Below are positions 1,918 to 56,373 of a stretch of DNA of 64,000 bases, piece after piece. Where the stretch lies: assembly GCA_035373905.1 (NCBI GenBank), contig DAOSOK010000013.1, positions 51,579 to 115,578 on the forward strand, in the 5' to 3' direction. The position numbers and the translations under genes are program-made. The notes under the pieces were generated by a model that was not told the DNA's origin, ran no database searches, and saw only the letters and a list, made by a program, of their open reading frames with translations. This stretch comes from Candidatus Ozemobacteraceae bacterium. Lineage in GTDB: Bacteria > Muiribacteriota > Ozemobacteria > Ozemobacterales > Ozemobacteraceae. Every line of letters begins with the position of its first letter. Position 1 is the first letter of the stretch.

Positions 1918-3477
1918 ATGTTCACGCGGGTGGTTTCCGGGGCGATCACGGGGTATGATCCGATCCTCGTCGAAGTAGAGGTCGATCTCGCTCCGGGTCT
2001 GCCGACGTTCAACGTCGTCGGATTGCCCGACACCTCGGTCAACGAATCGCGCGAACGCGTCAGAGCCGCGATCAAAAACGCCGGCTTCGATCTCCCCGCA
2101 AAGCGGATCACGGTGAATCTCGCCCCGGCCGACATCCGGAAAGAAGGCTCGGGGCTCGATCTTCCGCTCGCACTGGCGCTTCTGACGTGCGCCCAGGCCT
2201 TTCCGGCCGACAAACTCGAAGATCTGCTGATCATCGGCGAACTCTCCCTCGACGGCCGCCTCAGGCACACGAAGGGCATCCTTCCGCTCGCGCTGCTGGC
2301 ACGGGAAAAGGGCCTTCGAGGACTGATCGTCCCCGCCGCCAACGCCCGGGAAGCCCGCGTCGTGCCCGGCCTGAACGTGCACGCCTTCGAAACCCTCGCC
2401 GACCTCGTTTCGCAGCTCGTCTCTGCAGGCGATCTTCCTCTTCAGGCGGGCAAAGAGGAATCCGAAGTGGTCTCATCGACGTCCGAAGACGGCGAAGCGT
2501 CGTTCAATCACATCGATCTTGCCGAAATCAAGGGCCAGACGGCCTCACGCCGGGCCATCGAGATTGCCGCGGCAGGCGGCCATTGCCTCCTGCTCTCCGG
2601 GCCGCCGGGTTCCGGAAAGACGATGCTGGCACGGGCTCTGCCCACGATCCTGCCGCCGCTGACGTTCGACGAGGCGATCGAAGTGACTCGCATCTACAGC
2701 GTGCGCGGTCTGGTTCCGCCGGGTGGGGGCCTGATCGAGCGGCGCCCGTTCCGCGACCCGCACCACACCGTTTCCGACGCGGCGCTGATCGGCGGCGGCC
2801 GCACGCCCGGTCCGGGAGAGGTTTCCCTGGCGCATCACGGCGTGCTGTTTCTCGACGAGCTTCCCGAGTTCCGCAAGGCGGTCCTCGAAGGACTTCGCGA
2901 ACCCCTTTCCGAAGGCAGAGTCTCCATCTCCCGAGCGGCCGGGGCAGCCTGCTTCCCCGCCCGCTTCCTGCTCGTCGGGGCGATGAACCCCTGCCCGTGC
3001 GGTTTTGCGGGCGATCCCGCCAGGCACTGCACCTGCTCGGCCCGCCAGGTTCTCGCGTATCAGCAGAAACTCTCGGGGCCGCTTCTCGACCGCATCGACC
3101 TCCACATTCACGTGCCGCGCCTTTCCCCGGAGGAACTCTCCTCGTCCAAGCCGAACGAAGACTCGGCAACCGTCCGGGAGCGCGTCGCAGCCGCGAGGCG
3201 GCGTCAGCACGCGCGCCATCCGCGCGGCCCCCTCATGCTGAATGCGCATCTTCCCCCCCGGCGGCTCAAGTCGGATGCGATTCTCGACGATGCGGCGCAG
3301 CATCTTCTGCTCCAGGCCGTCCGTCGCTTCAACCTGTCGGCCAGGGCATACGACAAGATCGTCCGCGTCGCCCGCACCATCGCCGACCTGGAGGGCACCG
3401 CCGGCATCTCTCCTGCCCACGTCGCCGAAGCCGTCCAGTATCGCCTCTTCGAAGCCCCCAACGCCGTTCCCAGTTGA
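1918..3477 (+). CDS. yifB: YifB/ComM family Mg-chelatase-like AAA+ ATPase
   Basis: N-terminal Lon-protease-like domain (VEVEVDLAPGLPTFNVVGLPD), Walker A LLSGPPGSGKTML, Walker B VLFLDELPEF, C-terminal Mg-chelatase ChlI-like region. 519 aa is the family-typical length. Confidence 0.9.
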   Translation: MFTRVVSGAITGYDPILVEVEVDLAPGLPTFNVVGLPDTSVNESRERVRAAIKNAGFDLPAKRITVNLAPADIRKEGSGLDLPLALALLTCAQAFPADKLEDLLIIGELSLDGRLRHTKGILPLALLAREKGLRGLIVPAANAREARVVPGLNVHAFETLADLVSQLVSAGDLPLQAGKEESEVVSSTSEDGEASFNHIDLAEIKGQTASRRAIEIAAAGGHCLLLSGPPGSGKTMLARALPTILPPLTFDEAIEVTRIYSVRGLVPPGGGLIERRPFRDPHHTVSDAALIGGGRTPGPGEVSLAHHGVLFLDELPEFRKAVLEGLREPLSEGRVSISRAAGAACFPARFLLVGAMNPCPCGFAGDPARHCTCSARQVLAYQQKLSGPLLDRIDLHIHVPRLSPEELSSSKPNEDSATVRERVAAARRRQHARHPRGPLMLNAHLPPRRLKSDAILDDAAQHLLLQAVRRFNLSARAYDKIVRVARTIADLEGTAGISPAHVAEAVQYRLFEAPNAVPS

Positions 3478-3574
3478 ACGCCACGCCATGATGGCGCGGT
3501 ACCGGGGAAGCGTTGACAGGCGGGGGCCGGGTATTGCATCATGACACGACATTCAAGGATACGAGAGGAGCCAC

Positions 3575-5020
3575 ATGATTCAGACCGATTTTCTCAAGGG
3601 AGTCGCTCTTTTTTCAGGTCTCGGCGATGATGAATTCAAGCGCCTGAACGAGCGCGCCGAAGTCGTCAAGTTCGTGCGTGATGCCTTCATCTGCAAAGAA
3701 GGCCAGAAAGCCGACTCGATGTATATCATTCGCTCCGGTATCGTCCAGGTGTTCTGCGACGACGGACACGGCGGCAGAAAGATCCTGACCCACCTGAAGC
3801 AGGGCGAGTATTTCGGGGAAATGGCCCTGTTCACCGATGAACCGCGCACCGCCAGCGTCATCGCCCTCGCAGAGACGGACGTGATCCGGCTCAAGAAGGA
3901 TGACCTGTATGCGATTCTCGAGTCGGCACCCAAGGTCTCGATCGCCATCATTCGCACCCTTTGCGAACGCCTCGCCCGCGCGAACATCGGAAGCGCCGGA
4001 GTCAAGACCGGCTCGGTGTATGCGGTCATGGGCCCCGACACATCGTCAGGCAAGAGCCTGTTCGCGCGCAACCTCGCCCTCGCGATGCAGCAGAATCTCG
4101 GCAAGGACGTTCTCCTGTTCGACCCGAACCTGCGTGACGACCGCGTCGCCCGCCAGCTCGGCGTCGAGCAGCGCTCGCGCATCATCGACGAGCTCGTCGA
4201 CCGCGAGCGGATCGCCGACCTGAAGAAATACATCGTGAAGGCCCCCTGCGGCCTCATGACGCTGCTGCCCCAGGAAAACGGCCTGACCGACCTCCGCCTG
4301 AAGGAGTTCCACACCTTTGCCCTGATCAAAACCATCCTCGAATCCTTCGAGTTCATCGTCATCGATTCGAGCTCGATGTTCACGAAAGTGACCAAGGAGA
4401 TTCTCGAGTCGAGCAGCAAGATCGTGTATCTGATCTCGAGCAAGAACGTCTCCGTGCGCGGCCTGATCGACCATTTCGAGGAAACACGCCGCACCTGGAA
4501 GATCGCCCCCGAGCGCGTTGTCTACGGCGTAAACCGACTGACCGACGATCCGAAGCAGGAAGGCGTCATATCCGAGGCTGACCGCAAGCTCATCTCGTTC
4601 GAGATCCCCTTCGACAAGGCGCTTCACCAGCGCCGCGAGCCCGATCGCGAAACCCTGGTGCAGCGCGACCCCGCCCACCCGCTCGCCACCGTCGCGAAGA
4701 AGCAGGCCGAAGCGATCCTCTACGACCAGGTTCTCACGATCGCCCTGCCGGCTCTCGAAAACGACGCCGCCCGCCGCGAGCTCGCGAAACGCTGGGCCGA
4801 AACCGGCGTCCAGGAACTGTCGAAGAGCCTGCGCAACGTCGAGCTCAAAAGCTCGAAAGATGCCCAGGGCAACGCCTGCCACCTGCTGAGCGGCCGCACG
4901 GCAAAATGGCTGCTGAACCAGCAGATGGTCACCGTCATCGACTTCGCCGGCAAATACAAACAGGAGTTCGCCCTCGACAAGATCATCTTCACCCTCAACG
5001 GCCAGGAAAGCACCGTGTAA
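3575..5020 (+). CDS. cyclic-nucleotide-binding (CAP-type cNMP) domain fused to a CpaE/TadZ-like (MinD/ParA superfamily) pilus-assembly protein with a degenerate Walker A
   Basis: Residues 1-125 carry the cNMP-binding beta-barrel signature (FICKEGQKADSMYIIRSGIVQV ... GEYFGEMALFTDEPRTASVIA). The rest has the CpaE layout (VYAVMGPDTSSGKSLFARNLALAM ... VLLFDPNL ... FIVIDSSS ... VYGVNRL). GPDTSSGKS replaces the canonical KGGxGKT. Confidence 0.75.
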   Translation: MIQTDFLKGVALFSGLGDDEFKRLNERAEVVKFVRDAFICKEGQKADSMYIIRSGIVQVFCDDGHGGRKILTHLKQGEYFGEMALFTDEPRTASVIALAETDVIRLKKDDLYAILESAPKVSIAIIRTLCERLARANIGSAGVKTGSVYAVMGPDTSSGKSLFARNLALAMQQNLGKDVLLFDPNLRDDRVARQLGVEQRSRIIDELVDRERIADLKKYIVKAPCGLMTLLPQENGLTDLRLKEFHTFALIKTILESFEFIVIDSSSMFTKVTKEILESSSKIVYLISSKNVSVRGLIDHFEETRRTWKIAPERVVYGVNRLTDDPKQEGVISEADRKLISFEIPFDKALHQRREPDRETLVQRDPAHPLATVAKKQAEAILYDQVLTIALPALENDAARRELAKRWAETGVQELSKSLRNVELKSSKDAQGNACHLLSGRTAKWLLNQQMVTVIDFAGKYKQEFALDKIIFTLNGQESTV

Positions 5021-5039: not shown

Positions 5040-5085
5040 CGAGCGCCGTGATCCGAAATGGATCACGGCGCTCTCTTTTATCGAT
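5040..5085 (+). terminator. intrinsic terminator after the cNMP-CpaE gene
   Basis: Stem gagcgccgtgatcc / ggatcacggcgctc with loop gaaat, followed by tcttttatc. Confidence 0.5.
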
Positions 5086-8233: not shown

Positions 8234-8235
8234 CC

Positions 8236-9170
8236 TCAATGCGATATCGTCCCCTTCCCGGGCCCGGCCGTTTCTGCGCCGCTTTTGATCGAGCGGCGCA
8301 GGCGTTCGATCAGCTCCTGCCGGGTTGCGGGCCGCAACCGTTCTTTCAGAACCCGGGCAAGGCGAACGCCGGCCCGCATCAACTGCATCTCGGCCACGGG
8401 TCTCACGCGCGCGAGCCATTCCGACGAAATGACGAACCCGGGCTGATACGAATAGCCCCATTCGTGACCGAGTGCGTGAGACTCGTTCACCCAGTCCGTA
8501 ACCGTGCCGGTGGCGAGGGCGGCGGTGTCGGTAGCCAGGATCTTTTCGAGGAGCATGCGGGCGATCTGCTTCTCGTTCATTCCGAACGACTCGACGATGC
8601 GAAAATCCCAGACATGATGAAGCTTCATCTTTTCGCCATTCAGCTCGACGATCGTGGTGTTTCCACCGGCGTCACCGCGATCGATGCAATGGAGCGGCTG
8701 ATGAAGGTCACCGACGATATGGACAAGGAATTTCAGCGCTTCCCGTCGTTCCCGTTCTGATTTCTCCGTATTTCCGACATCGTTCTGCATGCGCAGGAAC
8801 GCGTTCACGATGAAATCGCCATTCGGCGCATCCCGTCTTTCATCGTATCCAGGGGCGTCGAACGGAATCTCCACGTAATGATAATGCTCCGTTTCCGGTC
8901 TCTGGGGCCGGACATGATCGGCCCATCCGGCAACGGAAACGAGCGTGGCGGGACGACGTTCTGCCGAGAGCAGGCGCATCGCCTCTACGTATGCGCCCTT
9001 CGCATCCGCGACATCCGAGCTGATGCCGGGAATCGGCCGATCGGTCCTGAGGAGATCCGCGGCGAGGATGGCGATGATCCGATGGCCGGGGCCGCTCCAT
9101 GCGCCTGCCATCCGGACATCCGTGATGCCGCAGAGAAGAAGGATGACCAATATGAACCTGCTCTTGATTC
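8236..9170 (-). CDS. S1/P1 nuclease family (zinc-dependent single-strand-specific endonuclease) homolog; exact start uncertain
   Basis: WSGPGHRIIAILAADLL, HYHYVEIPFD and EALKFLVHIVGDLHQPLHCIDRGDAGGN...HHVWD align with the P1-nuclease Zn ligand blocks (WGxxGH ... LRFLVHFIGDMTQPLH ... HSDWD). The in-frame ORF extends to 9522 only by reading through the REP element. The likely start is a non-ATG codon near 9160-9170, or ATG at 9111. Confidence 0.7.
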
Positions 9171-9315
9171 CTGCAGCATGAAAGCCACCCGTTCGCCCTG
9201 AGCCTGTCGAAGGGCGAAATGAGGAATCATCGGCAAGTGGCTGTTCGTGCTTCGACAAGCTCAGCACGAACGGAGACACGAAGCTGGTTTTTGATATGCA
9301 GGACTCAATAGTTGG
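9165..9315. repeat. REP/MITE-like element, family A, copy 3 (full length)
   Basis: cccgttcgccctgagcctgtcgaagg ... gttcgtgcttcgacaagctcagcacgaacgg. Translates as ...FVLSLSKHE... inside the spurious ORF extension. Confidence 0.6.
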
Positions 9316-9376
9316 TGTGCCCTGCATATTCCACGATCGATGCCGATGATTCATAGTTCCTCGATATGTATGTCGT

Positions 9377-10629
9377 TCATTTGATGACAGTTCGTTCCCG
9401 TGCAAATTTCTCGGCCATGGCGATGCGGTCGATGGCGGGCGGGTGGCTATAGAGCCAGAAAACGCGCCAGGGATGCGGGAGCAGATCGCTCCGGTTGTCG
9501 CGCGCGAGGCGTGCCTCGGCATCGACGTAGACTTTTTCGAGGCCGGTCAGCTCGAGCGAGGCCCAGTCGGCCTGGCGTTCGAAATACTGGCTGATCTGGG
9601 CTTCGACGGGCGCCGTCAGCAGGCCAAGCACGATCGTCGCGGCGAGAAAGAACGGCAGGTTCGATGGTTTCCAGATTTCGCCCAGCAGCATCGCGGGGTC
9701 GCCCTGCAGCATCGGATACAGCCACCACAGGGCGAACGCGCCGGCGAGGGCGCCGAGAAAGCCAAGCGTGAGGCCGATGCGGACGTGATCGTGGCGCCAG
9801 TGGCCGGCCTCGTGGGCGAAGATCAGCGCCGCCTCGTCGACCGTGTGGCTCTTGATGAGCGTGTCGTAGAGAACGATGCGCTTGCGGCCGAAGAGGCCGG
9901 TGAAATAGGCATTGGTATGTTTCGAATACGTGCTCTCGTCGATCTCGTAGATGTCATCGACCGGCACTCCCGCCTGGCCCGCGATCTGCATGATGCGCTC
10001 GCGCAAGGCCCCTTCTGCCAGCGGCTTCTGCACGTAAAACAGCGGGGTGATGACGTAGGGCATCAGCAGGGTGACAGCAATTCCATACCCCGTCGTCGCA
10101 ACGGGCAGCAAGACGGGCCACCAGCTGCCGCACCATCTGAGCACGGCAAAAACCGTCATGATGCCGACGGTCTGGATCGTCCAGCCGACCAGGCAACCTT
10201 TCAGGTATCGCCAGGCCCATTGCGCCGCCGTCATCTCGCTGAACCCCATCCGGCGCTCGCAGACATGGCCCAGATAGTAATCGAACGGCATCATGCAGAG
10301 ACGCTCCGCCACGAGAACGGCGAGAACAAGCAGAGCCCCGGAAAACCAGAAACTTCCGGGCATCGCCGTTTCCAGACGCGTTTCGAGAAGTCTCATGACG
10401 CCGCTTCGCCAGAGTAGCAGCAGAATGAACAACTGGACGTAGCCGTACGCGACGCGGGCCGCGAAGCCGTTGCGGATGTATTCGCGGCCCCGGGCGATGT
10501 CGTCGGGGGTGAAGTGCCGCAGAACGAGATCGCGCCGGCCCGGGTCGGGGTCGCCATACCAGGCGAAGCCGAGAAGAATCGCCCTGACGAGCGCCCAGGC
10601 GATCACCAGCGCCCACACGTACCGCATCA
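9377..10629 (-). CDS. M48 family zinc metallopeptidase (Ste24/HtpX-like), integral membrane
   Basis: HEXXH in FAHEAGHWRHDH, multiple TM helices in the N-terminal half. Start MMRYVWALVIAW. The upstream ORF extension overlaps a REP copy. Confidence 0.8.
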
Positions 10630-17912: not shown

Positions 17913-18461
17913 TTAAAAGCTTTTCCAGTTCAGACTCCGCGTAAGCAAGTGTACACATCCGGGATCCGTCTCGCGATTCCACGATTCAACGAGATCCTGG
18001 TGAGACACGGTCGGAATTCCCAGACGGTGCAGAACGAACGTCGCCAGCCCGACTCCGGCGATGGGCTTTCCGCCGAAACTGCCGTCATACACCCGATGTA
18101 CCCCGCACGACGGGCTCCGCTCCGAGAGAATAGCCCCGTCGGCGGTGAGCGTCCGGGCAATGTGGCCCGCGGCTTCCGCGCCTGCGACGAACGGTCTCGT
18201 CACGTCCGCCCCGTCGATCGCGAGGACGCGCGTGCGGCCGGCCAGAACCGATTCGGCGCTTCCCTGGAGTTCGGAGGGAAGCCTCGGCGTCGGCAGTCCG
18301 CCGAGCTGCTCGGGACAGACCGGAACAAAAACGATGCCCGCCGCTTTCGCGGCAGGCACCAGTCTGCAGAAGTGGGATTCCCAGGCCGGATGGAATGTTC
18401 CCTTGTAGTTGCTCGCTACGCCAAGAAGGCAGGCGCTGACGAGGATGATCCGGCCTGGCAC
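17913..18461 (-). CDS. DUF523 family protein (YbbK-like)
   Basis: N-terminal ILVSACLLGVASNYKGTF ... IVFVPVCPEQLGGLPTPR and CGVHRVYDGSFGGKPIAGVG match the DUF523 signature. Confidence 0.7.
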   Translation of the reverse strand: MPGRIILVSACLLGVASNYKGTFHPAWESHFCRLVPAAKAAGIVFVPVCPEQLGGLPTPRLPSELQGSAESVLAGRTRVLAIDGADVTRPFVAGAEAAGHIARTLTADGAILSERSPSCGVHRVYDGSFGGKPIAGVGLATFVLHRLGIPTVSHQDLVESWNRETDPGCVHLLTRSLNWKSF

Positions 18462-24373: not shown

Positions 24374-26089
24374 ATGGAAAAAGTCAATTTCGACGACATA
24401 GTACGAAATCTCATGGTCTTCCTGAAAGGCCAGGTGCCGTCCCTGCAGTCAAAGCACTCACGGGACGACCTCGTGCACCAAATCCAAAACATCGTTTACA
24501 CGCTGAGAACGTTCCTCATCCAGCTCGAAGCAGCCTCTTCCTCGGATCCGCGCAAGACCCCCGAATACCAGAGCGCGCTACAGGAAATCGAGGGATTCAA
24601 GAAAACCAACGCCCGTCTCGAGGAATCCCTCTTCCTCGAGATGAGCAAACATCAGAAACTGACGGCCGAGATCGACAAACAGGCTGTTCTGCTCAAGGAT
24701 CGCGACCAGACTATCGCCCAGCTCAACAACGAGATCGCCGCGTTGCAGCGCCAGATCGGCGAACTCCAGAACAGGCCGGCGACCGAGGTGCAGAGCGCCG
24801 TTCTCGAGGCCCAGCAGGCGGCCCACGAGCAAGAAAAGGCCGCGTTCGCCGAAGAGAGAGCCCGCCTGGAAGCGGCGGCGGCCGAGGCCGCCTCGAAAGC
24901 GCAGTCTGCGACGGAAGAATTGATCCGGCTGTCGACCGAACTGAACAAGGTTCGCGATGAGTATGACCGCGCGACCCAGCGCCTCGACGAACTGCAGAGC
25001 CTCACCGAAACCATCGACCGCGAACGTCAGATGAAAGAGCGCGCAGAGCAGGCTCTCGGCGCCGCGAAGCTCGAGTTCAACCAGGAGCGGGAGCAGCTCG
25101 CCGCGGAAATCGAGAAGTATCGCAAGGACTATGAGGAACTGAAAAACCAGCCCCTCAAGGACCAGGACACCTATCGCAAGATCATCAAGGCGCTCCAGGA
25201 AAAGATCGACAAGCTCCAGCGCACCCTGCACAGCGGACCCGCGGGAGATGCAATTCAGAACATCCAGGCGGCAGCGGAGGCCCGGATCAAGGCGCTCGAA
25301 ATGGCCCTCGCCGAGGCGAAGTGCCAGATCGAGCTCGGCACGCCGGTCTCACCCGAAAAATTTGAAAACCTCACCCGCGAAAACAACGAACTCCAGCAAC
25401 GGATCATCGATCTCGAAGCGACCGTGCGGCGGCTCCTGGCCACCCAGGAACACGCGCAGAGCGGCCAGAACGAAGGCCTCTCGAGCGGTTTCCGGTGCGA
25501 CGAAATCATCCTGTTTTTCGAAGTGCTGACGACGCTCATCGCGAAGCTGGGCACAGCGCCCGAAAACCGCGATCTCCGGCAGAAGGCGGAAAAGGCATTC
25601 GCCGTCCTCGAGAAGACGCACGCGGTCGAGCCCGTCTCGTCACTCGGCCGAATGTATGAAGAGAAGATGCACAAGGTCGTCAAATCCTTCATCGCGCCGT
25701 TCCTCGACGACGGCATGATCGTCAACGAGATCAGCCGCGGGTATCTCTCGGGCGACCAGATCATCCAGCGCGCAGTCGTTTGGGTGGCGAAATCCCGTTT
25801 CCAGTGCTCGGATTGCGGCTCGCCGTCGAGGCCACAAGATAATTTCTGCCCCAAGTGCGGCCTCGAACTCTGCGCCCCCGACGGAACGCCGAAACGCCGG
25901 CTGCCTCAGCTTCCCACCGATCCGGAGATCGGCATCCAGCTTCTCGATATTCTTATCGAACGGCGCCAGATCAAGGCGATGCAAGGCCTTCTCTCGCATC
26001 TCATGATGGCGAATCCCGGCCATAACGGCCTTCTGATCCGCAACAAGCAGATCACCCAGATCCTTTCGGAATTGCCGCCGGAAGACTAA
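24374..26089 (+). CDS. long coiled-coil protein with C-terminal zinc ribbon
   Basis: About 350 aa of heptad-rich E/Q/K/A sequence, then CSDCGSPSRPQDNFCPKCGLELC (CxxC...CxxC). Confidence 0.5.
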   Translation: MEKVNFDDIVRNLMVFLKGQVPSLQSKHSRDDLVHQIQNIVYTLRTFLIQLEAASSSDPRKTPEYQSALQEIEGFKKTNARLEESLFLEMSKHQKLTAEIDKQAVLLKDRDQTIAQLNNEIAALQRQIGELQNRPATEVQSAVLEAQQAAHEQEKAAFAEERARLEAAAAEAASKAQSATEELIRLSTELNKVRDEYDRATQRLDELQSLTETIDRERQMKERAEQALGAAKLEFNQEREQLAAEIEKYRKDYEELKNQPLKDQDTYRKIIKALQEKIDKLQRTLHSGPAGDAIQNIQAAAEARIKALEMALAEAKCQIELGTPVSPEKFENLTRENNELQQRIIDLEATVRRLLATQEHAQSGQNEGLSSGFRCDEIILFFEVLTTLIAKLGTAPENRDLRQKAEKAFAVLEKTHAVEPVSSLGRMYEEKMHKVVKSFIAPFLDDGMIVNEISRGYLSGDQIIQRAVVWVAKSRFQCSDCGSPSRPQDNFCPKCGLELCAPDGTPKRRLPQLPTDPEIGIQLLDILIERRQIKAMQGLLSHLMMANPGHNGLLIRNKQITQILSELPPED

Positions 26090-30443: not shown

Positions 30444-31880
30444 TCAGTTCCGCGACCTCTGTTCGCTCCCGATGAGGTCGATGTTCCCCTGCGCGAGGTC
30501 TCGGCTCTGGATGTAGGACTGCTTCACGACGGCGATGTCCACGAGGTCTTTGGCGGCGGAATACTGTTTCACCTCTTCCTTGGCATCGCCCGTGTTCATC
30601 CAGGTGAGATCGATTTTCGTCGAAGCCTCCTGGATCTTTCTCGCCTCCGCGGATCGCTTCTGAAAATCCGCATCCGACTCGGTGAAGGCGACTTCCCTGC
30701 CCTGACTGTCGTATTGGACCCCCTGCTTGATCTTCGACGCATCGAAACTTTCGAGAAGGCTCTTATAGGGAATCTCCTTCCCCTCGCTGTCCTTCTGCGG
30801 GTTTTTCTCGTAGGCCTCTTTCAGCGCGCGATCTTTCACCATCAGGTCATACGCCTGCCGATACGCCTGTTGCTCTTTCTGGTCGGACGGGAGTGTCGTG
30901 CCCGACGATTCGAGCGACCGCCTGAGAAATCTCTCCTCGTCGCGGTCGATGATCGTTCGCAGGGCCTTGACGTCGTTCTCCACGTCCTGGAGCTTGTCGT
31001 GCTTCAGGAGGTCTTCCTTGATCCTCGAGACGTCGGTATCCGTGCCGCCCCAGGTGAAGGGGTTATACCAGGTGGCCGCGCCTTTCGCATCGACGTCCTT
31101 CAACTGATCGTTGGTGTTGTTGATCTCCCTGTTTGCGTTACTCAACGATTCGGTTTCGCGCTGCATCATGAACGCAAGCTGTTGAGACGACATGTCCTTG
31201 AGCGCATCGGCCGTCAGCGTCGCCGAGAACATCGACGACTGGCCCTCGGTCCCGGTCATCTTTTCCGTCGCGTTCGTCAGCACCGCCATGGCGATCGAAC
31301 TCTTCACCGGCGCGGCCGCGATGAACTCGTTGCGCATCACGACGGTGGTCTTCTCGTTGTGCTCGATCATTTCCCGCGTCACCGGCACCTGCATCGCCCC
31401 GGTCAGGGAAATGTCGATCCGGGCCTGCGCGGTCTGCTGCATCCCGTCAGGCATCAGCGTGCCCGGTTCGGCCCCGCGGGCGAGATCGAAGGATTTCAGG
31501 TTCGAGCAAAGCAGTTTTTGCCCCTGGCCACCGACGTTGCGGTACAGTCTCGGTTTCCGGAATTCGTACACCACGTCGGCGACCCCCTTCGAGTCGATCC
31601 TGTTCGCGTCCTTGTTTTCGAGAAACCGCTGGAATTTGATCGTTCCCGAGTTCCCATCGGCAGCGCCGGCCACCTCCAGGGTGCCCGCCTTGATCGCCTT
31701 GAAATCGAGAGCTATCTGGTCGATGGTCTTGCGAATCTCGGACTGGAGCGCCTGCCGGGCGTTTGCCTTCGCGAAATTCCGCCGCGAGGCCGTCCAGACC
31801 TGGTAAGCGCCGCCGAGGACGACGCTGGAAAGAAGAACGCCGATCATCACTTCGACGAGGGTCACACCAGATTTGCGCAT
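30444..31880 (-). CDS. large pseudopilin (prepilin-type N-terminal cleavage/methylation domain, GspJ/PilW-like), 478 aa
   Basis: N-terminus MRKSG|VTLVEVMIGVLLSSVVLGGAYQVW has the class III signal with Glu at +5, then a long periplasmic region. GGGAG RBS. Confidence 0.65.
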   Translation of the reverse strand: MRKSGVTLVEVMIGVLLSSVVLGGAYQVWTASRRNFAKANARQALQSEIRKTIDQIALDFKAIKAGTLEVAGAADGNSGTIKFQRFLENKDANRIDSKGVADVVYEFRKPRLYRNVGGQGQKLLCSNLKSFDLARGAEPGTLMPDGMQQTAQARIDISLTGAMQVPVTREMIEHNEKTTVVMRNEFIAAAPVKSSIAMAVLTNATEKMTGTEGQSSMFSATLTADALKDMSSQQLAFMMQRETESLSNANREINNTNDQLKDVDAKGAATWYNPFTWGGTDTDVSRIKEDLLKHDKLQDVENDVKALRTIIDRDEERFLRRSLESSGTTLPSDQKEQQAYRQAYDLMVKDRALKEAYEKNPQKDSEGKEIPYKSLLESFDASKIKQGVQYDSQGREVAFTESDADFQKRSAEARKIQEASTKIDLTWMNTGDAKEEVKQYSAAKDLVDIAVVKQSYIQSRDLAQGNIDLIGSEQRSRN

Positions 31881-40589: not shown

Positions 40590-41705
40590 ATGGGTGATCC
40601 ACGGAGGCAGGCAGAGACGTTCGAGCGTCTCGCCCCTGATTTGAACGACCGCCAGCGCAGGGTCCTCAAGGAGGTCTGCGACGCCTTCATCAACACCGGC
40701 ATCCCGGTCGGCTCCCGCACCATTTCTCGCTTCAGCAGCCTGTCATGCTCCCCGGCCACGATCCGGAACGAGATGGCCGACCTCGAGTCGATGGGCTATC
40801 TGTTCTCGCCGCACACGTCCGCCGGCCGCATTCCCACGGAAAAAGGGTACCGTTTTTACGTCAACTTCCTGCTCGAATACGATCGCCTCGGCCAGATCGA
40901 GAACGCCGTCATGGCCCTTCTCGACAGCCGCATCCAAAGCCGATCCCGTGAGCAGGAGGTCCTGCGCACCGCCATCAAGGTCGCGTGCGAGCAGACGGGC
41001 CTGCCGGGCCTCGTCCTCGCCCCCTGCAAATCGGGAAACGCGGTGCGCAACCTGCAGATCGTGCGCGTCCTCGAGACGACCGCCATGCTGGTCATGGTCG
41101 ACGAGTGCGGCCACATCACCGACCACCTGGTGACGATTCCCGCCGAGACGACGGACGAAGAGCTCCAGAAACTGGCGTTGCATCTTCGCGCCGAACTCAC
41201 GGAAAACCGGATCACCGACGCCGAGGCCGAGTTCCTGCGGCGCTCGAAGGATCTGCTGACCCGGCACAACCACCTGATCGCGCAGCTCACCGAGCGCGTC
41301 CGGACGGCCATTTCCAACCCTGCCTCCGACGCGATTTTCCTCGAGGGATTCGTCAACTGCTTCGACAAGCCCGAGTTCAGCGATCCCGAGAAGATGCGCA
41401 AGATGATCGGGCTTCTCGACCGAAAGGAACAACTTCTTCATCTCATGGCGCGAAGCCTTGAAAGCGGAGACGATATCATGGTAAATATCGGCTCCGACTC
41501 CGGTCTTGCGGTAACCGATCTGTCGGTGGTCACCGCGCGGTATCGCGGCCCGAACCAGTCGTTCGGCCGTATCGGCCTGATAGGGCCGCTGCGCATGGAT
41601 TACGCCCGCGTCGTCGCCACGCTCGGCAACATCTCGCGGGCATTGAGCGATCTCCTGCTCTCGGCGCTTCCGACCCCGGGAAGCCGCTCCGGGAGCGACA
41701 GTTAG
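40590..41705 (+). CDS. hrcA: heat-inducible transcription repressor HrcA
   Basis: N-terminal winged helix RQRRVLKEVCDAFINTGIPVGSRTISR, 371 aa, followed by grpE-dnaK-dnaJ as in Firmicutes-type operons. Confidence 0.9.
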   Translation: MGDPRRQAETFERLAPDLNDRQRRVLKEVCDAFINTGIPVGSRTISRFSSLSCSPATIRNEMADLESMGYLFSPHTSAGRIPTEKGYRFYVNFLLEYDRLGQIENAVMALLDSRIQSRSREQEVLRTAIKVACEQTGLPGLVLAPCKSGNAVRNLQIVRVLETTAMLVMVDECGHITDHLVTIPAETTDEELQKLALHLRAELTENRITDAEAEFLRRSKDLLTRHNHLIAQLTERVRTAISNPASDAIFLEGFVNCFDKPEFSDPEKMRKMIGLLDRKEQLLHLMARSLESGDDIMVNIGSDSGLAVTDLSVVTARYRGPNQSFGRIGLIGPLRMDYARVVATLGNISRALSDLLLSALPTPGSRSGSDS

Positions 41706-41706
41706 T

Positions 41707-42378
41707 GTGGCAAGCATTCTTCCAGAAAGCGAGACGATCATGACAGCCGAAGTGAACAAGACACAGCAGGCCCCCGAGGCTGCGCCGTCGCCCGCTCCGG
41801 AACAGGCCGCGAGCGAAAACGCCGCGCAACCGGCCGCAGGCACCAACGCAACCCAGGCTGAAGCCCCCCAGGGCGAGACCCCGCAGGCCGAAGCGGCCCG
41901 GCCCGAGGATCCCCTCGAAACCCTCAAAAAGGAAGTCGACGGCATCAAGAAGGAACTGGCCGAAACGAAGAACCGGTATCATCGCGCCCTGGCTGATTAC
42001 GACAACCTCAAGCGCCGGACCGACCAGAAGCTGCTCGAGATGTCGGAATACGGCTCTGAGGCGTTCGTGAAGAAGCTTCTGCCCGTGCTCGACACGTTCG
42101 AGTCAGCCATGCGCCAGCTGACCGACGCGAAGGTCGAGGCCAAGATCATGGACGGCTTCGAGATGCTCTTCTTCCAGTTCAACGACGTGCTCGAAAAGGA
42201 AGGGCTCAAGCCGATCCCGGCGAAGGGGCAGAAGTTCGACCCGAACCTGCATGAAGCCATGTCGAAGAGCACCGATCCGAACCAGGACGACGAGGTCGTC
42301 CTGATGGAGTATGAAAAGGGCTACATGTTCAAGAAACGCGTCATGAGAACGGCGAAAGTCGTCATCAACCACAAATAA
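41707..42378 (+). CDS. grpE: nucleotide exchange factor GrpE
   Basis: RALADYDNLKRRTDQKLLE ... FDPNLHEAM ... GYMFKKRVMRTAKVVI. GTG 41707 or ATG 41740 are alternative starts. Confidence 0.85.
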   Translation: MASILPESETIMTAEVNKTQQAPEAAPSPAPEQAASENAAQPAAGTNATQAEAPQGETPQAEAARPEDPLETLKKEVDGIKKELAETKNRYHRALADYDNLKRRTDQKLLEMSEYGSEAFVKKLLPVLDTFESAMRQLTDAKVEAKIMDGFEMLFFQFNDVLEKEGLKPIPAKGQKFDPNLHEAMSKSTDPNQDDEVVLMEYEKGYMFKKRVMRTAKVVINHK

Positions 42379-42450
42379 CCGAGTTTATTATATCCTTTCA
42401 CATACAGCGCCGCGGCGAGGCCGCACGCAACCAGACAGGAGGAACAATAC

Positions 42451-44319
<1,869 letters not shown>

Positions 44320-44387
44320 GTTGACGACACGCGGGGCGGGCCGCCAGGGTCCGCTCCGCATGGCCGCCGCGATTCCAGGAGACACAG

Positions 44388-45503
44388 ATGGCCAAGCGTG
44401 ACTACTACGAGGTTCTCGGCGTCGCGAAAAACGCCGATGAGGCCGAACTGAAGCGGGCCTACCGCACCCTTGCCCGCAAATACCATCCCGACGTGAACCC
44501 GGCGAAAGAGGCCGCGGAACAGTTCAAGGAAATAAACGAGGCCTACCAGATCCTCAGCGATCCGAAGAAGCGCAGCGCCTACGACCAGTTCGGCCACCAG
44601 GGGCTCGAAGGGGCCGGCTTCAACCCAGCCGACTTCCAGGGGTTCGGAAATTTCGGCGATATATTTGGCGATATATTGTCAGACTTCTTCGGCGGCGCGA
44701 GTCACAAGGCCGGCCCCCGCCGCGGCGCCGACCTGCGATATGACCTCGAGATCACCTTCGAGGAGGCCGTGTTCGGCTGCGAGAAGAAGATCACGGTCCA
44801 GCGCTCGGCAAACTGCACCCAGTGCGGCGGCTCCGGCGCCCAGACCGGAAGCAGCCGGAAGGTTTGCCCGGTCTGCCGCGGCAAAGGCACGATCTCCCTC
44901 GCCCAGGGTTTCTTCTCGATCCAACGCACCTGTCACCAGTGCCAGGGCGAGGGTGAGATCATCGACAAGCCCTGCAATACCTGCCACGGCCAGCGTCGCG
45001 TCAAGCACAGCGAAAGCCTCGACGTGAAGATTCCGCCCGGCGTCGAGACGGGCAGCAAACTGAAGCTCACGGGCGAAGGCGAAGCCGGTGACAAGGGCGG
45101 TCCTCCGGGCAGCCTGTACATCGTCCTGACGGTCGGCAGGCACGAACTGTTCGAACGTGTCGGTGACGATATCGTCTGCGAGCGCAACATCAGCTTCCCA
45201 CTCGCGGCTCTCGGCGGGGAAGTCGATGTTCCGACCCTCCAGGGCCCGGTCAAGATCAAGATCCCGACCGGCACCCAGACCGGCAAGGTGTTCCGGCTCC
45301 GCGGCTACGGCGTGAAGTCACTCCAGGGCGGCCAGGGAGACCAGCTCGTGAAGATCTTCGTCCGCACACCGACCGATCTGAGCGAAAAGGCGAAAGACCT
45401 CCTCAAACAGCTCGCGGCCGAGGACGGCGACGCCGATTCCAAGCTCGGCGAGGGCGGCAAGTCCTTCTTCGACAAGGTGAAGCAGGCCCTCGGAGGCCAT
45501 TGA
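44388..45503 (+). CDS. dnaJ: co-chaperone DnaJ (type I, with four CxxCxGxG zinc-finger repeats)
   Basis: J-domain DYYEVLGV...HPD, G/F region, CTQCGGSG / CPVCRGKG / CHQCQGEG / CNTCHGQR. Confidence 0.95.
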
Positions 45504-47952: not shown

Positions 47953-49602
47953 ATGAAGCAAATCGGTAGTTATCTGGTAGATGCAGCTCTCATCACGCAT
48001 GAGCAGTTGCAACGAGGGCTTGCTGTCAGCGAGAAGCAGAAGATCAGGCTCGGCGCAGCCCTCATCGACATGGGCTTCATAACCGAAGACGATCTTCAGA
48101 CGGCGCTGTCGAGTCAGTTCGGAATACCTAGAATCGACGCCGACGAACTGGTCGTCGATCCGACGGTTCTTCACGAGATTCCGGCCCAGCTTGCCCGACA
48201 ACTCAACGTGATTCCCCTGCACATCAAATCGGGGGCGCTCGTGGTCGCGACATCGGATCCTCTCAACATCAGCATTCTTGCTGACCTCGAAAGCAAGATC
48301 AAGCGGCGCATCGTGTTGGTCATAGCCTCCACCCACCAGATCAAACACGCCATTTCCCGCTACTACGCCGGTCGGGAGAGACTCGACGAGAGCATCAATC
48401 AGGTTCAGCTCATCGAAAACGAAACGTCAATCGACGAATTGGAAGCGGCCGATGCACAGATTCAAAGTGCCCCGATCGTGAAGTTCGTGAATCAGATCCT
48501 CCAGGGGGCGGTTAGAGAGCATGCTTCTGATATTCATGTCGAGCGCGACAATCTCGAGTTTCATATCCGGTATCGCATCGATGGCATGCTGAAAACGATG
48601 TTCCGACCCAAGCAGCATCTCCATCAGCTGATCGTATCGCGCATCAAGGTGATGGCACGACTTGACGTCAGCGAACATCGGATTCCCCAGGATGGTCGGA
48701 TCATGATGACGATGGATAACCAGCCAGTCGACTTTCGCGTGGCTATCTGTCCGTGCATTGACGGTGAGAATGCCGTCATCAGGGTTCTGAATCGTGACAA
48801 TCAAGCCATGGATCTCACCCATCTTGGTTTCAGCCCGGCCGGTCTGGAAAAACTTGAATCACTCATCTCGCGCAATTTCGGGTTGGTTCTCATTGCCGGA
48901 CAAACCGGCTCCGGAAAAACGACGACGCTGTATGCGATTCTGCAAAAGCTGAATGAAGAGCGGAAGAAGATCATCACCCTCGAAGATCCCGTTGAAAAGA
49001 GACTTCCGCTGCTCAATCAGATTCAGATCAATCCCAAAGTCGATCTCACGTTTGCAACCGGCCTTCGCTCCATCCTCCGAATGGATCCGGACATCATTCT
49101 CATCGGCGAGATCCGGGACGGCGAAACCGCCAATCTCGCGGTGAATGCCGCGATGACGGGCCACCTGGTCTTTTCGACGATTCACTGCGGCATCGCCGCC
49201 GAAGTGCCCGTGCGCCTGACCGAGATCGGCGTCGAACCGTATCTCGCCGCGAACGTCCTCCTCGGCACCATCGCCCAGCGTCTCGTACGCTTGAACTGCC
49301 CGAATTGTCTCGTCGAAGAAGAGCTGTCAGAGCAGATTCGCAAGCGCTTCGACCCCGACTTCCAGAGCTACCGGGGAAAAGGCTGCGCCGCGTGTGCCGG
49401 CATCGGATATCGCGGTCGGGGCTGTATCGAGGAAGTGATGCCGGTAACCGACGAGATCAGGAAATTGATGCTTGCCCGTGCGACAACCCGTCAACTCGAG
49501 GAACAGGCCGTCAAAAACGGAATGGTTCCGTTGCTGGAATCGGGCATTTCCAAAATTCGTCATAAGCAAACCAGCTTCATGGAGCTGGCCAGAGTCCTTT
49601 GA
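47953..49602 (+). CDS. gspE: GspE/PilB/MshE-family secretion-pilus assembly ATPase with MshEN-type N-terminal domain
   Basis: Walker A LIAGQTGSGKTTTL, Asp box, Walker B DPDIILIGEIRD, His box, and the tetracysteine motif CPNC...CAAC. The N-terminus carries RLGAALIDMGFITEDDLQTALSSQ. Confidence 0.9.
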   Translation: MKQIGSYLVDAALITHEQLQRGLAVSEKQKIRLGAALIDMGFITEDDLQTALSSQFGIPRIDADELVVDPTVLHEIPAQLARQLNVIPLHIKSGALVVATSDPLNISILADLESKIKRRIVLVIASTHQIKHAISRYYAGRERLDESINQVQLIENETSIDELEAADAQIQSAPIVKFVNQILQGAVREHASDIHVERDNLEFHIRYRIDGMLKTMFRPKQHLHQLIVSRIKVMARLDVSEHRIPQDGRIMMTMDNQPVDFRVAICPCIDGENAVIRVLNRDNQAMDLTHLGFSPAGLEKLESLISRNFGLVLIAGQTGSGKTTTLYAILQKLNEERKKIITLEDPVEKRLPLLNQIQINPKVDLTFATGLRSILRMDPDIILIGEIRDGETANLAVNAAMTGHLVFSTIHCGIAAEVPVRLTEIGVEPYLAANVLLGTIAQRLVRLNCPNCLVEEELSEQIRKRFDPDFQSYRGKGCAACAGIGYRGRGCIEEVMPVTDEIRKLMLARATTRQLEEQAVKNGMVPLLESGISKIRHKQTSFMELARVL

Positions 49603-49643
49603 CGCGCTTCCACGCGCCCCAGGGCTGATTATCAGGAGAACCA

Positions 49644-50861
49644 ATGGCTATATACGAGTTTCAGGCAAAAGACAGCGAAGGCAAGACCGTCAGCGGAACA
49701 CTTACTTCGAGCGATGATTCCGCCGCCATGGCCGAACTCACGTCACGAGGGCTGTGGGTCGCCTCGCTTGTCGAAACGTCGAGCGCCACCTCCCTCAGTT
49801 CCGAGATTCGATTGTTCTCGTTCGTTTCCGCGGAAACGCTCAATACATTTCTTCTGCAACTTTCGATCATGATCAAGTGCGGCGTGAGCCTTGCCGAAGC
49901 CCTGCAATCGCTGGAACAAACCGAAACCAGCACGGTATTCAAGCAGGCGCTTTCGGACGTCAGGCTCGATGTGGCCGCCGGCAAATCATTTTCGGAAGCC
50001 CTTTCCCGGCATCCGGAAATCTTCGACAGATTCATGATTGCCATGGTCCGAATCGGTGAAACTGGTGGCGTTCTCGAAGAGGTTCTCGCCAAACTGGCAT
50101 CGACGAGCAAGCGTCGCCTTTCCCTGAGAAACCAGATCCTGGGATCGCTTGCCTATCCCATGCTCCTTCTCTGCGTCGCGACGCTGGTCGTCACGGTCCT
50201 GGTCGTTTTCGCCGTCCCCAAGTTCGCCGTATTGTTCGAGTCCGCGAAAGTCGAGCTTCCCGTCACGACCAGGGCCCTTATCGCCGGAAGCAAGCTGATC
50301 GAGGAACACATCAGATTGGTCGGCGGGCTGTTCGCCGCCGCCGTCGTCGGCGGCATTCTGACGCTGTTCAATTCGACCGTTCAATGTCACCTCGGGGAAG
50401 CAGCCATGCTTCTCCCCGTTCTGAGGCAGGTCGTGCAGAAATACCATGTGGTGTTGATTTCCGAGCCGCTTTCCATGCTGCTTGCCGCCGGAGTTCCGTT
50501 GCGCGAACTTCTGATAGCAATCGAGAACACGATCGAGATGACGACCCCCAAATCAGTCGTGATCAAGATGCGTGAGCACATCGAACGGGGAGCAAGCCTC
50601 CAGCAAGCGCTCGAACAAAATCCGATCTTTCCTCCGATGGCCGTCAAGCTCGTGGAGACCGGCGAACGCACCGGAGCTCTCGACAAAATGTTCAAGGAAA
50701 TCGCCGAGTTCTATGACGATCAGCTGCAGACAGCCATGAAATCGGCTCTCAGCCTTCTCGAACCGCTCTTGATCCTCGGCGTTGCCGTCATCGTCGGTTT
50801 CATCATGCTATCCGTCTTCGTGCCCATCTACCAGATGAGCTTCATGATCAAAAAGGCCTGA
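49644..50861 (+). CDS. gspF: GspF/PilC-family inner-membrane platform protein
   Basis: Two T2SSF repeats and three TM regions. C-terminal ...LEPLLILGVAVIVGFIMLSVFVPIYQM. Confidence 0.9.
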   Translation: MAIYEFQAKDSEGKTVSGTLTSSDDSAAMAELTSRGLWVASLVETSSATSLSSEIRLFSFVSAETLNTFLLQLSIMIKCGVSLAEALQSLEQTETSTVFKQALSDVRLDVAAGKSFSEALSRHPEIFDRFMIAMVRIGETGGVLEEVLAKLASTSKRRLSLRNQILGSLAYPMLLLCVATLVVTVLVVFAVPKFAVLFESAKVELPVTTRALIAGSKLIEEHIRLVGGLFAAAVVGGILTLFNSTVQCHLGEAAMLLPVLRQVVQKYHVVLISEPLSMLLAAGVPLRELLIAIENTIEMTTPKSVVIKMREHIERGASLQQALEQNPIFPPMAVKLVETGERTGALDKMFKEIAEFYDDQLQTAMKSALSLLEPLLILGVAVIVGFIMLSVFVPIYQMSFMIKKA

Positions 50862-50862
50862 T

Positions 50863-51387
50863 ATGAAGCGAACCGGGCCTTCAGGCTTTTCCCTATGGGA
50901 GCTTCTGCTCACCTGTGCCGTTGCGATCGTTGCGGCTCCCCTCGTCCTACCGCTCTTCTTCGTGGATTCGCATGCGGCATCAGACGAAACCGCCAGTCGG
51001 ATCATCCTCGGAGCCATACAGCAAACACGCAGTGCCGGCCTTGCAGGCAGGGTCGTCGGAGGGCGAATTTCGTTTACCAGCGCGACGTCGACGTTTACGA
51101 TGCAGTCCGACCAGCAGGCTCTTCCGTCCGGTTATGTGATCAAATCGATATCTCTCGACGGCACTCAGATTTCGGCCATAGAGGCCGGGTTCGATCCGCT
51201 CGGAAACATCTCTTTCACCCCATACGGGAACCAAGCGGTCCTGACGCTCGCAAGAGCCGACGGCACAGAAATCCGGACGATCACCCTCGAAGGCAAAGGA
51301 ATCCCAATTCCGCAACCGACTGCCGGAACTGCCGAAACCGGCGGTTCTTCGGGCGGCGGCGGCGGACGAGGGTGCAGATGGTTGTGA
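50863..51387 (+). CDS. pseudopilin (class III signal, E+5)
   Basis: MKRTGPSG|FSLWELLLTCAVAIVA. Confidence 0.65.
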   Translation: MKRTGPSGFSLWELLLTCAVAIVAAPLVLPLFFVDSHAASDETASRIILGAIQQTRSAGLAGRVVGGRISFTSATSTFTMQSDQQALPSGYVIKSISLDGTQISAIEAGFDPLGNISFTPYGNQAVLTLARADGTEIRTITLEGKGIPIPQPTAGTAETGGSSGGGGGRGCRWL

Positions 51388-51815
51388 AATCATTTTCCAG
51401 AGGGTTTTCTCTTGCCGAGATCCTCGTGGCGATCCCCTTAGTCGCGGTGATCTCCATGAGCCTCGCCTACTTCGGTTCAATCTACTCGTTTTCCAATTCT
51501 CAGACCATCGGCAGGTTCCGCTGTCAGATCGCCGTTCACAATCTCCTGACGCTGGTCCAGGCGGCAAGCGATACCGCCGCCCTGACCGTCGTGAGCCGCC
51601 ATATTCAGGGGGGCGGCACCGCAGGCCCGCTTCTGACCTCATCACCCGCCCATCCTGACGGCTCCTCGGCACTCACGGTGTCTTCGAGCGTTTCCTCAGT
51701 GACCGGATACGGCATGACGTTCGGCGGATCTCCCGCCATGCCGTTTCATGTCGCCGTAACCGATGAGACAACCGGAGCGCGCTCTGAAATCATCACCTAT
51801 GTCACAACCCACTGA
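51378..51815 (+). CDS. pseudopilin (class III signal, E+5)
   Basis: MVVKSFSRG|FSLAEILVAIPLVAVI. Overlaps the previous gene by 10 nt. The track ORF 50895..51815 is a spurious N-terminal extension in this frame. Confidence 0.6.
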   Translation: MVVKSFSRGFSLAEILVAIPLVAVISMSLAYFGSIYSFSNSQTIGRFRCQIAVHNLLTLVQAASDTAALTVVSRHIQGGGTAGPLLTSSPAHPDGSSALTVSSSVSSVTGYGMTFGGSPAMPFHVAVTDETTGARSEIITYVTTH

Positions 51816-51819
51816 TGTC

Positions 51820-52227
51820 ATGAACAAACGATATGCACGCATAGGATTCACGTTGATGGAGCTCCTTTCCGTCATCGCCCTTTCCACCATTTTTGCCGGG
51901 ATATCTCTCGGCCCCCTCATGATGCAGTTTTCGCTCGTTTTCGAAAGCAACGCACGCGTCGCCGAAGTCAATCGTCTGATGGAAGCGGCTCTTCTCGTTT
52001 CGCGCACAATCACCCAGAGTCGTGCCTTTGCATCGAGTTTCGCCTTCACCGGAGACGAGAATCTCACCTGGACCGATGAGACGGGCCAGGTCCATACCAT
52101 CCTCGAACAGGTGACGGGCTCGATAACGACCGATGCATCGAATGACCAAACCGTCGTCATACGCCTCGAAGGCAAGAGAATTCCCGGCGGAGCGACCGTC
52201 CGCATGCTTGCCTATCCGTTGAGATGA
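51820..52227 (+). CDS. pseudopilin (class III signal, E+5)
   Basis: MNKRYARIG|FTLMELLSVIALSTIFA. Upstream in-frame ATGs at 51763 and 51799 are also possible. Confidence 0.6.
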   Translation: MNKRYARIGFTLMELLSVIALSTIFAGISLGPLMMQFSLVFESNARVAEVNRLMEAALLVSRTITQSRAFASSFAFTGDENLTWTDETGQVHTILEQVTGSITTDASNDQTVVIRLEGKRIPGGATVRMLAYPLR

Positions 52228-52253
52228 CCCTCCCCACGAAGCCCGGAGAACCT

Positions 52254-54233: not shown

Positions 54234-54338
54234 CCTGCCGATAGGCGAACAGTTCTTCTTGCCATTCTCAGGCAGTTCGTATAATAATCGATATTTCTCC
54301 ATTGTGCCGCTGATGTCACATCCTGAAGCCGGAGGTAT

Positions 54339-55820: not shown

Positions 55821-55827
55821 CATTTCA

Positions 55828-56373
55828 ATGTTTGAGCGAATATTGCGGTATCTGGTCATCATCGGGCTTTTGTTCCTGCCGTGGCGCTATTCTCTGCTCG
55901 CGGAACTTTCACAGCTCAAGGCAGGCCGTCAGCAAAACGTCGATACGACCGCCACGATACGCCATCTCGCGGACGGACGCGGCGAGGTCATGAAAAAAGC
56001 CCTCGAACTGCAACGCCAGCAACTCAAGGCACGGCAGAGGGCGCTTTCCTTCATTCTCCCCCCGTTTTCCCAAGCCCGCGCGAACCTCATGGCGTCATTC
56101 GATACGGTGCGTTCGCAAATTCCCGGCGAATGGGAAGTCGTTCCCGAGGGGAAGTTCCATTCGGAAGGAATGCATGTCGTCTGGCCGTTCCGGTTCAAAT
56201 ATATCGGCACCTATGCGAATGCGGTCAAGGCGCTCGCCGCGATGGAGACGGCCCCCCAGTTGCTGCGCCTCACCAGGACGACCGTGACCGGGGCCGGAAG
56301 CAGCGTCATCGTCGAAGGGAACGTCGAGATGGTGTATCTTGATGACACCGCGTCAGGGGGGGTGAGCCTGTGA
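55828..56373 (+). CDS. PilO-like bitopic protein
   Basis: N-terminal TM ILRYLVIIGLLFLPW, then a coiled coil, then an alpha/beta domain. Position after PilN and 4-nt overlap with the next gene. Confidence 0.45.
   Translation: MFERILRYLVIIGLLFLPWRYSLLAELSQLKAGRQQNVDTTATIRHLADGRGEVMKKALELQRQQLKARQRALSFILPPFSQARANLMASFDTVRSQIPGEWEVVPEGKFHSEGMHVVWPFRFKYIGTYANAVKALAAMETAPQLLRLTRTTVTGAGSSVIVEGNVEMVYLDDTASGGVSL

Follow-up and report, generated by a model that had tools for sequence, protein, structure and literature searches.

The gene analysed here lies on contig DAOSOK010000013.1 of a Candidatus Ozemobacteraceae bacterium (assembly GCA_035373905.1). The window, i.e. the whole stretch of DNA that was analysed, covers 64,000 nucleotides (positions 51,579 to 115,578 of the forward strand). 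Close to its start, an open reading frame (ORF) with an ATG start codon, preceded by GAGGAG, codes for a protein that is 100% identical to a Candidatus Ozemobacteraceae protein from a metagenome-assembled genome (MAG), assigned to the candidate phylum Riflebacteria. The gene is real, stands alone and is conserved throughout this phylum; its product is a three-domain protein (Table 1): a CRP-type sensor of cyclic nucleoside monophosphates (cNMP), a MinD/ParA-fold domain and a C-terminal domain. In the sources, it is named only 'CRP-like cAMP-binding protein' or 'cyclic nucleotide-binding domain-containing protein'. The initial annotation had proposed that a cNMP sensor precedes a MinD/ParA-fold domain, and this domain order is borne out.

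The N-terminal domain is matched by Pfam cNMP_binding (PF00027) at residues 31-117 (E=3.6e-25, 88.2 bits; cutoff 27.5) and in part by the NCBIfam CRP model (residues 19-136, profile positions 14-132 of 214). It has the beta-barrel with the cassette Glu and Arg by which PF00027 is recognized. A degenerate phosphate-binding cassette, about which the initial annotation had been cautious, was not found: F80, G81, E82, R91 and A93 are identical in all members of an alignment of 56 family members (conservation counts out of 56 refer to this alignment throughout). At position 92, family members have T, N, S or I, which does not discriminate cAMP from cGMP. This cyclic nucleotide-binding (CNB) domain is structurally closest to dimeric CRP/FNR regulators, with matches that span 147-162 residues and extend over the C-helix. 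The C-helix, which in CRP makes up the dimer interface, is strongly conserved and runs, via a short flexible linker, into the MinD-fold domain. Pfam detects no helix-turn-helix family in the protein. In contrast to CRP/FNR sensors, it thus has no helix-turn-helix output, and the label 'CRP-like' covers only its first quarter.

In the second domain, GK[ST], the Walker A' Asp and the Walker B Asp occur in canonical order, as is typical for the SIMIBI P-loop fold. Matches to Pfam models of the MinD/ParA type are sub-threshold (AAA_31, 25 bits; CbiA, 21.7 bits). The noncanonical P-loop GPDTSSGKS, already pointed out in the initial annotation, is indeed present. Asp155 occupies the position of the signature Lys of the deviant Walker A motif in 55/56 sequences, when aligned to GGKGGVGKT of FleN. 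Asn185 occupies the position of MinD Asp40, also in 55/56 sequences, with DPNL aligned to DADL of FleN and DFD of MinD; the FleN chains 8pb9 and 8p53 carry DAAL, with Ala at precisely the spot equivalent to Asn185. The Asp at this position (D40 in MinD, D44 in Soj) is the residue that activates the water for hydrolysis; when it is mutated, dimers are trapped in the ATP-bound state. G159, D183, P184, D264, S265 and S266 are invariant, while K160 and S161 are each kept in 55 members. Thus, the residues that bind the nucleotide and Mg are kept, but both hydrolysis residues of the superfamily, i.e. the signature Lys and the Asp equivalent to D40, have been replaced. The nucleotide-proximal loops are the best-conserved segments in a family whose full-length clusters are 55-81% identical overall, which argues for a functional nucleotide site.

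When the family profile was compared to PDB sequences, FleN (4.8e-9), the tyrosine autokinase (BY-kinase) BceF (2.4e-7) and MinD (6.3e-7) were matched, as were VpsO, CapB and Wzc. NCBIfam matches to the part beyond the CNB domain are weak; they are led by pepcterm_TyrKin (E=2.2e-10, residues 131-291), followed by EpsG (5.8e-7) and the archaeal MinD model minD_arch (6.1e-5). The cutoffs of the MinD models are not reached (minD_bact, 15.6 versus 212.9 bits; minD_arch, 22.3 versus 201.75 bits). The generic partition model ParA_partition gives E=0.058, and there is no ParB neighbour; the protein is thus not a generic ParA/Soj partition protein next to a ParB, an option that had initially been kept in mind.

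The matches to pepcterm_TyrKin, EpsG and the four BY-kinase structures invite the view that this is a P-loop protein akin to BY-kinases, with a role in the cNMP-controlled regulation of polysaccharide or envelope synthesis. BY-kinases (Wzc, CapB, BceF) share the P-loop S/G-P-x-x-x-x-GK[ST], which is devoid of the signature Lys, and an Arg four residues past the Walker A' Asp; Arg187 is at the place of this Arg. A Mur ligase and a protein with S-layer homology (SLH) domains are among the neighbours. We nevertheless consider this view improbable. The matches are far under the curated cutoffs (40 versus 230 bits). There is no C-terminal Tyr cluster: the last 25 residues contain 0-2 Tyr (none in 42/56 members, one in 12/56). 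Walker A' is DPNLR rather than DxDxR, so that its second Asp is missing, and Walker B is DSSS rather than DxxP. Neither a transmembrane activator of the Wzz type nor a locus for exopolysaccharide (EPS) is found nearby, and the structural similarity to BY-kinases is below that to MinD and FleN.

Residues 385-481 have no relative in Pfam, NCBIfam or PDB. This is a previously undescribed domain, confined to the focal family. It is a folded domain of 97 residues, located where MinD and FlhG have an amphipathic membrane-targeting helix. This difference bears on another alternative, namely, that the protein is a positioning or anti-activator ATPase like FleN/FlhG or MinD, which runs a normal cycle with an additional cNMP input and places or counts the divisome, a flagellum or a secretion machine. 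FleN/FlhG and MinD are the top sequence-profile and structural matches among solved structures, and they share the fold, the P-loop GK[ST] and the Walker A' and B Asp residues with the focal protein. This alternative is still unlikely. The signature Lys and the Asp equivalent to D40 are both replaced, the membrane-targeting helix gives way to the folded domain, and minD_bact scores far below its cutoff. Among the neighbours of the focal gene, there are no minC/minE, flhF or flagellar genes.

The family was delineated by several searches. A homology search returned ~57 orthologue clusters, almost all of which are full-length (mostly 481 residues). Every cluster with a named taxon is from Riflebacteria or Ozemobacter; below these, the scores fall sharply to a few proteins with ~30% identity. 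A genome scan (one genome per GTDB species) detected the focal gene in 43 species genomes, nearly all of which are labelled Riflebacteria, Ozemobacteraceae or Rifleibacterium. These orthologues are full-length (49-97% identity), and all but one of the 43 genomes have a single full locus. Neither Pfam nor NCBIfam has a model for this family, and literature searches for cNMP-MinD/ParA fusions yielded nothing relevant.

More distant relatives were retrieved with HMMER, by running a profile of residues 138-481 (344 positions) exhaustively against 1.84 billion cluster representatives. Only 11 proteins scored below 1e-30. Distant members (down to ~22% identity) align through the MinD-like and C-terminal domains, and all seven of the non-fragment members from outside the Riflebacteria clade that were scanned have an N-terminal cNMP_binding match. 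Conservation of the fusion in relatives, which was initially asked for, is thus established: all full-length relatives down to ~22% identity keep the three domains, and this combination is a selected, conserved unit. In the distant non-Riflebacteria members, the P-loop Lys is replaced by Arg (GRS or GRT) in 7 of the 10 shown, and one has CQT; the signature Lys is present in none of those shown. A P-loop Lys that is often changed to Arg or lost, together with a signature Lys that is never present, fits binding without turnover. Together with Asp155 and Asn185, this strengthens the earlier suggestion that the protein may be a regulator or pseudo-ATPase.

In the next tier (137 proteins; E ~1e-20 to 1e-11, bit scores 58-88), only the MinD-like part is matched. 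These proteins are mostly of ~400 residues, with the ATPase domain beginning at ~residue 145. A Pfam scan of 100 of them assigned AAA_31 to all 100, Response_reg to 61, TadZ_N to two and cNMP_binding to three. K or R is kept at the signature position in 116 of the 128 outgroup proteins with a recognizable motif. Judged from sequence, receiver-fused MinD-like proteins are the closest kin of the ATPase domain outside the family. The focal family is a derived offshoot, in which the signature motif was lost, the sensor was exchanged and the C-terminal domain was added.

Some uncharacterized metagenomic proteins of ~410-430 residues (e.g. P0147 and P0223) combine a cNMP domain with a canonical MinD-like domain and thus resemble the focal protein in the identity and order of the first two domains. 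P0147 keeps the canonical deviant Walker A motif (SAKGGVGKS), unlike the focal family. Proteins of this type match only up to ~position 245 of the 344 positions of the query profile, so the C-terminal domain is absent there. Since such proteins exist elsewhere, a CNB-MinD fusion as such is not unique to the focal family. The contigs of P0147 and P0223 are too short to reveal a Tad context; the flanking fragments code for radical-SAM, tetratricopeptide repeat (TPR) and ABM domains, not for CpaF.

The focal gene is flanked by a promoter-like site and a strong terminator of its own, and from these signals it is predicted to be monocistronic. The promoter candidate ends 33 nt before the ATG and is the only such site in the region 3300-5400, being recognized by consensus match only. 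An Rfam scan of positions 1-12000 found no RNA family. The upstream neighbour (1918..3477) codes for an AAA+ protein of the YifB/ComM type, which is Mg-chelatase-like. In Riflebacteria, the conserved gene order is YifB, focal gene, M48 peptidase, Mur ligase, M16 peptidase, SLH protein and T2SSF gene. A rumen/gut clade deviates in that only the focal gene has the opposite orientation with respect to the genes on both sides. The context is that of an autonomous gene on a syntenic backbone, not of an operon. The conserved position and the sole inversion in one clade are the behaviour of an autonomous core regulator.

A Pycsar-type anti-phage effector, triggered by a cyclic nucleotide that is made upon infection, was considered and rejected as extremely improbable. 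PADLOC matches are confined to the generic CNB domain, no cyclase is encoded next to the focal gene, and the protein has no TIR, transmembrane or nuclease effector domain. A usually single-copy gene in 43 species genomes, on a syntenic housekeeping backbone, is unlike a defence island.

In the window and in the two closest relatives (L011 and L012), the focal gene and the M48 peptidase gene are separated by an inserted block of 4.3 kb (~5.0-9.4 kb). It codes for two secreted proteins, a 203-residue ORF product without family match and an S1/P1 nuclease; homologues of its first three genes were found only in these two relatives. The block also holds all three copies of a repeat that resembles repetitive extragenic palindromic (REP) elements, GTGCTGAGCCTGTCGAAGCACGAG, at 5121-5144 (+), 7190-7213 (-) and 9244-9267 (-) (up to two mismatches; none expected by chance). 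The copies at 5121 and 7190 are located between probable genes. The third lies in the N-terminal extension of the 428-residue nuclease ORF (8236..9522, minus strand). Because the S1/P1 nuclease match begins only at residue 142 and the repeat is within this extension, the true start of the ORF is probably further downstream.

Outside Riflebacteria, the gene neighbourhood is different. In a distant clade, an orthologous HEAT-repeat protein of 520-554 residues with a lipoprotein-type signal peptide is encoded directly downstream in four independent contigs. In one of these (L055), the stop codon of the family gene overlaps the start of the HEAT-repeat gene. At L007/L008 and L010, a gene for an AhpC/TSA-type redoxin precedes the family gene. 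The HEAT-repeat protein, a predicted lipoprotein, may be a partner of the family protein in this distant clade.

The initial annotation considered the protein to be laid out like CpaE and pointed out that CpaE-like proteins localize and activate Tad pili. The window does contain Tad-like genes, the nearest of which are 13.5 kb from the focal gene. As initially proposed, a CpaE-like domain is fused to CpaF at 20-22 kb: residues ~321-629 of the 691-residue protein are a TadA/CpaF ATPase (T2SSE, E=5.7e-54; TadA-family model, E=4.5e-90), and its N-terminal MinD-like region carries the motif SFQGGIGKSS. The same architecture, a hybrid of TadZ and TadA ('TadZA'), was recently reported from Bdellovibrio in a preprint that also quotes the Walker-like consensus of TadZ as K/RGGXGXS/T (10.64898/2026.07.08.737194). 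The fusion protein fits this consensus, except for Q in place of K/R, while P-D-T-S-S-G-K-S of the focal protein does not fit. Between the N-terminal region of the fusion protein and the focal family, hhalign found a weak similarity (probability 51%, E=1.5e-4). No Flp pilin, TadV or RcpA gene adjoins the TadZA and T2SSF genes; the next gene of this cluster (17913..18461) codes for a protein resembling 2-thiouracil desulfurase.

It is conceivable that the focal protein is a CpaE/TadZ paralogue which localizes or activates a Tad-like pilus machine in response to cAMP or cGMP. The kinship with receiver-AAA_31 proteins points in this direction, as does the layout with a sensor ahead of a MinD-like domain. 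Receiver-fused MinD-like ATPases (CpaE/TadZ-type, COG4963-like; TadZ structure 3fkq) have the same N-terminal sensor or adaptor of ~130-140 residues, a linker and a MinD fold from ~residue 145, and their catalytic motifs are frequently degenerate too. Besides the TadZA-T2SSF operon in the window, a T2SSF gene is found ~9 kb from the focal gene in at least nine other Riflebacteria loci. We consider this explanation unlikely. Five features of CpaE/TadZ could be checked, and four of them (family hidden Markov model (HMM), motif, receiver domain and locus) are lacking, the MinD/ParA fold being the only one found. The model CpaE_hom_Actino (TIGR03815) gives E=0.019 and 14.1 bits (cutoff 154.45), and Pfam finds no TadZ_N match. 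While FleN, BceF and MinD are among the matches of the family profile, 3fkq is absent from the list of PDB matches at E<=1; in sequence as well as in fold, the match to TadZ is no better than that to FleN, MinD, BcsQ and BY-kinases. The N-terminus is a cNMP_binding domain with a CRP-like fold, not an atypical receiver (or pseudoreceiver), the signature K/R and the GG are absent, and there is an extra C-terminal domain. The focal gene is monocistronic and outside the tad/cpa locus, with the genes for M48 peptidase, Mur ligase, M16 peptidase and SLH protein in between, and the Tad operon is already equipped with a fused TadZ module. A functional link to Tad is possible but not indicated. Hence, the kinship behind the initial comparison to CpaE holds, but the receiver domain is missing and a function as CpaE/TadZ is not supported. 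The family is uncharacterized and not assignable to Tad-pilus CpaE/TadZ.

We rate the chances as even that the protein is a cytoplasmic MinD/ParA-fold switch, gated by a second messenger: a hydrolysis-impaired member of the MinD/ParA (SIMIBI) class, in which cNMP sets the geometry of ATP-holding modules. This reading builds on the motifs and on the structural model. The protein would dimerize through its CRP-like C-helices, and binding of cAMP or cGMP would re-orient the two MinD-like modules. These would hold ATP as a structural cofactor, with slow or no hydrolysis. The cyclic nucleotide would then take the on/off decision, which canonical relatives leave to the ATPase cycle and an activator (MinE, ParB). 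The C-terminal domain may serve as output or as a partner-binding surface. As a target, we would prefer a process in the assembly of the envelope or of a surface machine; the conserved TadZA-TadBC operon, 9-13 kb away, would be the second candidate.

Several points weigh against this switch. Nucleotide binding, oligomeric state and the identity of the ligand are deduced from motifs and an AlphaFold2 (AF2) monomer. With an acidic residue in place of the signature Lys, formation of a canonical ATP-sandwich dimer may be precluded altogether. According to a rough regular-expression census, ~1/6 of the outgroup proteins also have Asn at the D40 position, so that this feature is not unique by itself. 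The distant members P0125 and P0129 have lost the cassette Arg, and binding of cNMP is therefore not a trait of the wider family as a whole. The 43 genome loci and the metagenome contigs offer only backbone synteny and no operon partner that hints at a target, and homologues of the HEAT-repeat protein were found neither in the window nor in the flanks of the Riflebacteria loci.

Table 1. Positions of the focal gene, its domains, motifs and signals, and of other genes referred to in the text. Coordinates are those of the window, except for the HEAT-repeat genes, which are on other contigs.
Feature	Coordinates	Strand	Remarks
Whole ORF, 481 residues	3575..5020	+	cNMP-binding, MinD/ParA-fold and ferredoxin-like C-terminal domains
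Candidate promoter, sigma-70-like	3513..3542	+	TTGACA, 18-nt spacer, CATCAT; consensus match, 10/12 positions
CRP-type cyclic-nucleotide-binding domain	3575..3982	+	residues 1-136
Phosphate-binding cassette FGEMALFTDEPRTAS	3812..3856	+	residues 80-94
Long C-helix of the cNMP domain	3929-3982	+	residues 119-136
Flexible linker	3983..4012	+	residues 137-146; predicted local distance difference test (pLDDT) <50 at residues 137-144
MinD/ParA-fold P-loop NTPase domain	4013..4720	+	residues 147-382
Walker A, noncanonical, GPDTSSGKS	4031..4057	+	G159-K160-S161 canonical; TS in place of GG
Switch I / Walker A', VLLFDPNLR	4109..4135	+	Asp183, Asn185, Arg187
Walker B, FIVIDSSS	4352..4375	+	Asp264 invariant
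Family-specific C-terminal domain	4727..5017	+	residues 385-481; ferredoxin-like, beta-alpha-beta-beta-alpha-beta(-beta)
Predicted intrinsic terminator	5041..5073	+	15-bp stem (10 GC pairs), then TCTTTTAT; begins 21 nt past the focal stop codon
T2SSF (TadB/C-like) protein, 509 residues	18475..20004	-	after the 691-residue fusion
TadZ-like MinD-fold domain fused to TadA/CpaF ATPase (TadZA), 691 residues	20036..22111	-	
PilB/GspE-type ATPase	47953..49602	+	with MshEN domain
T2SSF of the second pilus-like cluster	49644..50861	+	
RCC1-repeat protein, 669 residues	52224..54233	+	
Secretin	56822..58747	+	
HEAT-repeat gene, L055	2916..4484		
HEAT-repeat gene, L056	3466..5130		
HEAT-repeat gene, L007	8445..9272		
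HEAT-repeat gene, L010	3434..5148		

Some other genes in the window deserve mention. A second cluster resembling type IV pili or type II secretion systems (T2SS) is located at 47953..58747 (plus strand); it includes the PilB/GspE-type ATPase, the second T2SSF, the RCC1-repeat protein and the secretin of Table 1. A 478-residue protein with a prepilin N-methylation motif is encoded at 30444..31880 (minus strand). The gene at 24374..26089 (plus strand) codes for a protein of 571 residues, which combines a zinc ribbon with a region resembling GrpE (residues 331-473); this gene is apart from the canonical hrcA-grpE-dnaK-dnaJ operon (40590..45503). At 61335..63905 (plus strand), a protein of 856 residues has domains of the Major Vault Protein (MVP_shoulder, E=7.7e-31; Vault_3, E=1.4e-7). 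Such a vault-like gene is uncommon in bacteria.

ATPases of the ParA/MinD type organize chromosomes, divisomes, flagella, pili and organelles, and their usual logic is an ATP-driven dimer cycle that is reset by a partner. It is tempting to speculate that the focal family is a distinct functional class of the MinD/ParA fold, with the hydrolysis timer disabled, a conformational switch operated by cyclic nucleotides in its place and a novel ferredoxin-like output; it would then be a Riflebacteria-wide core regulator that ties cAMP or cGMP to the assembly or placement of envelope machines. This wider proposal is tentative and, in our view, rather doubtful. Its significance is limited, as CNB domains are commonly fused to many outputs, which was also seen among the matches of the homology search. 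The practical gain concerns annotation, given that current names cover a quarter of the focal protein and the C-terminal domain is not represented by any model in Pfam or NCBIfam. If the proposal is true, a conserved lineage that has kept the nucleotide pocket, dropped the hydrolysis residues and added a sensor for cAMP or cGMP would represent a second way to operate the MinD fold. It would also be an entry point to cNMP signalling in the candidate phylum Riflebacteria, for which MAGs are the sole representatives here.

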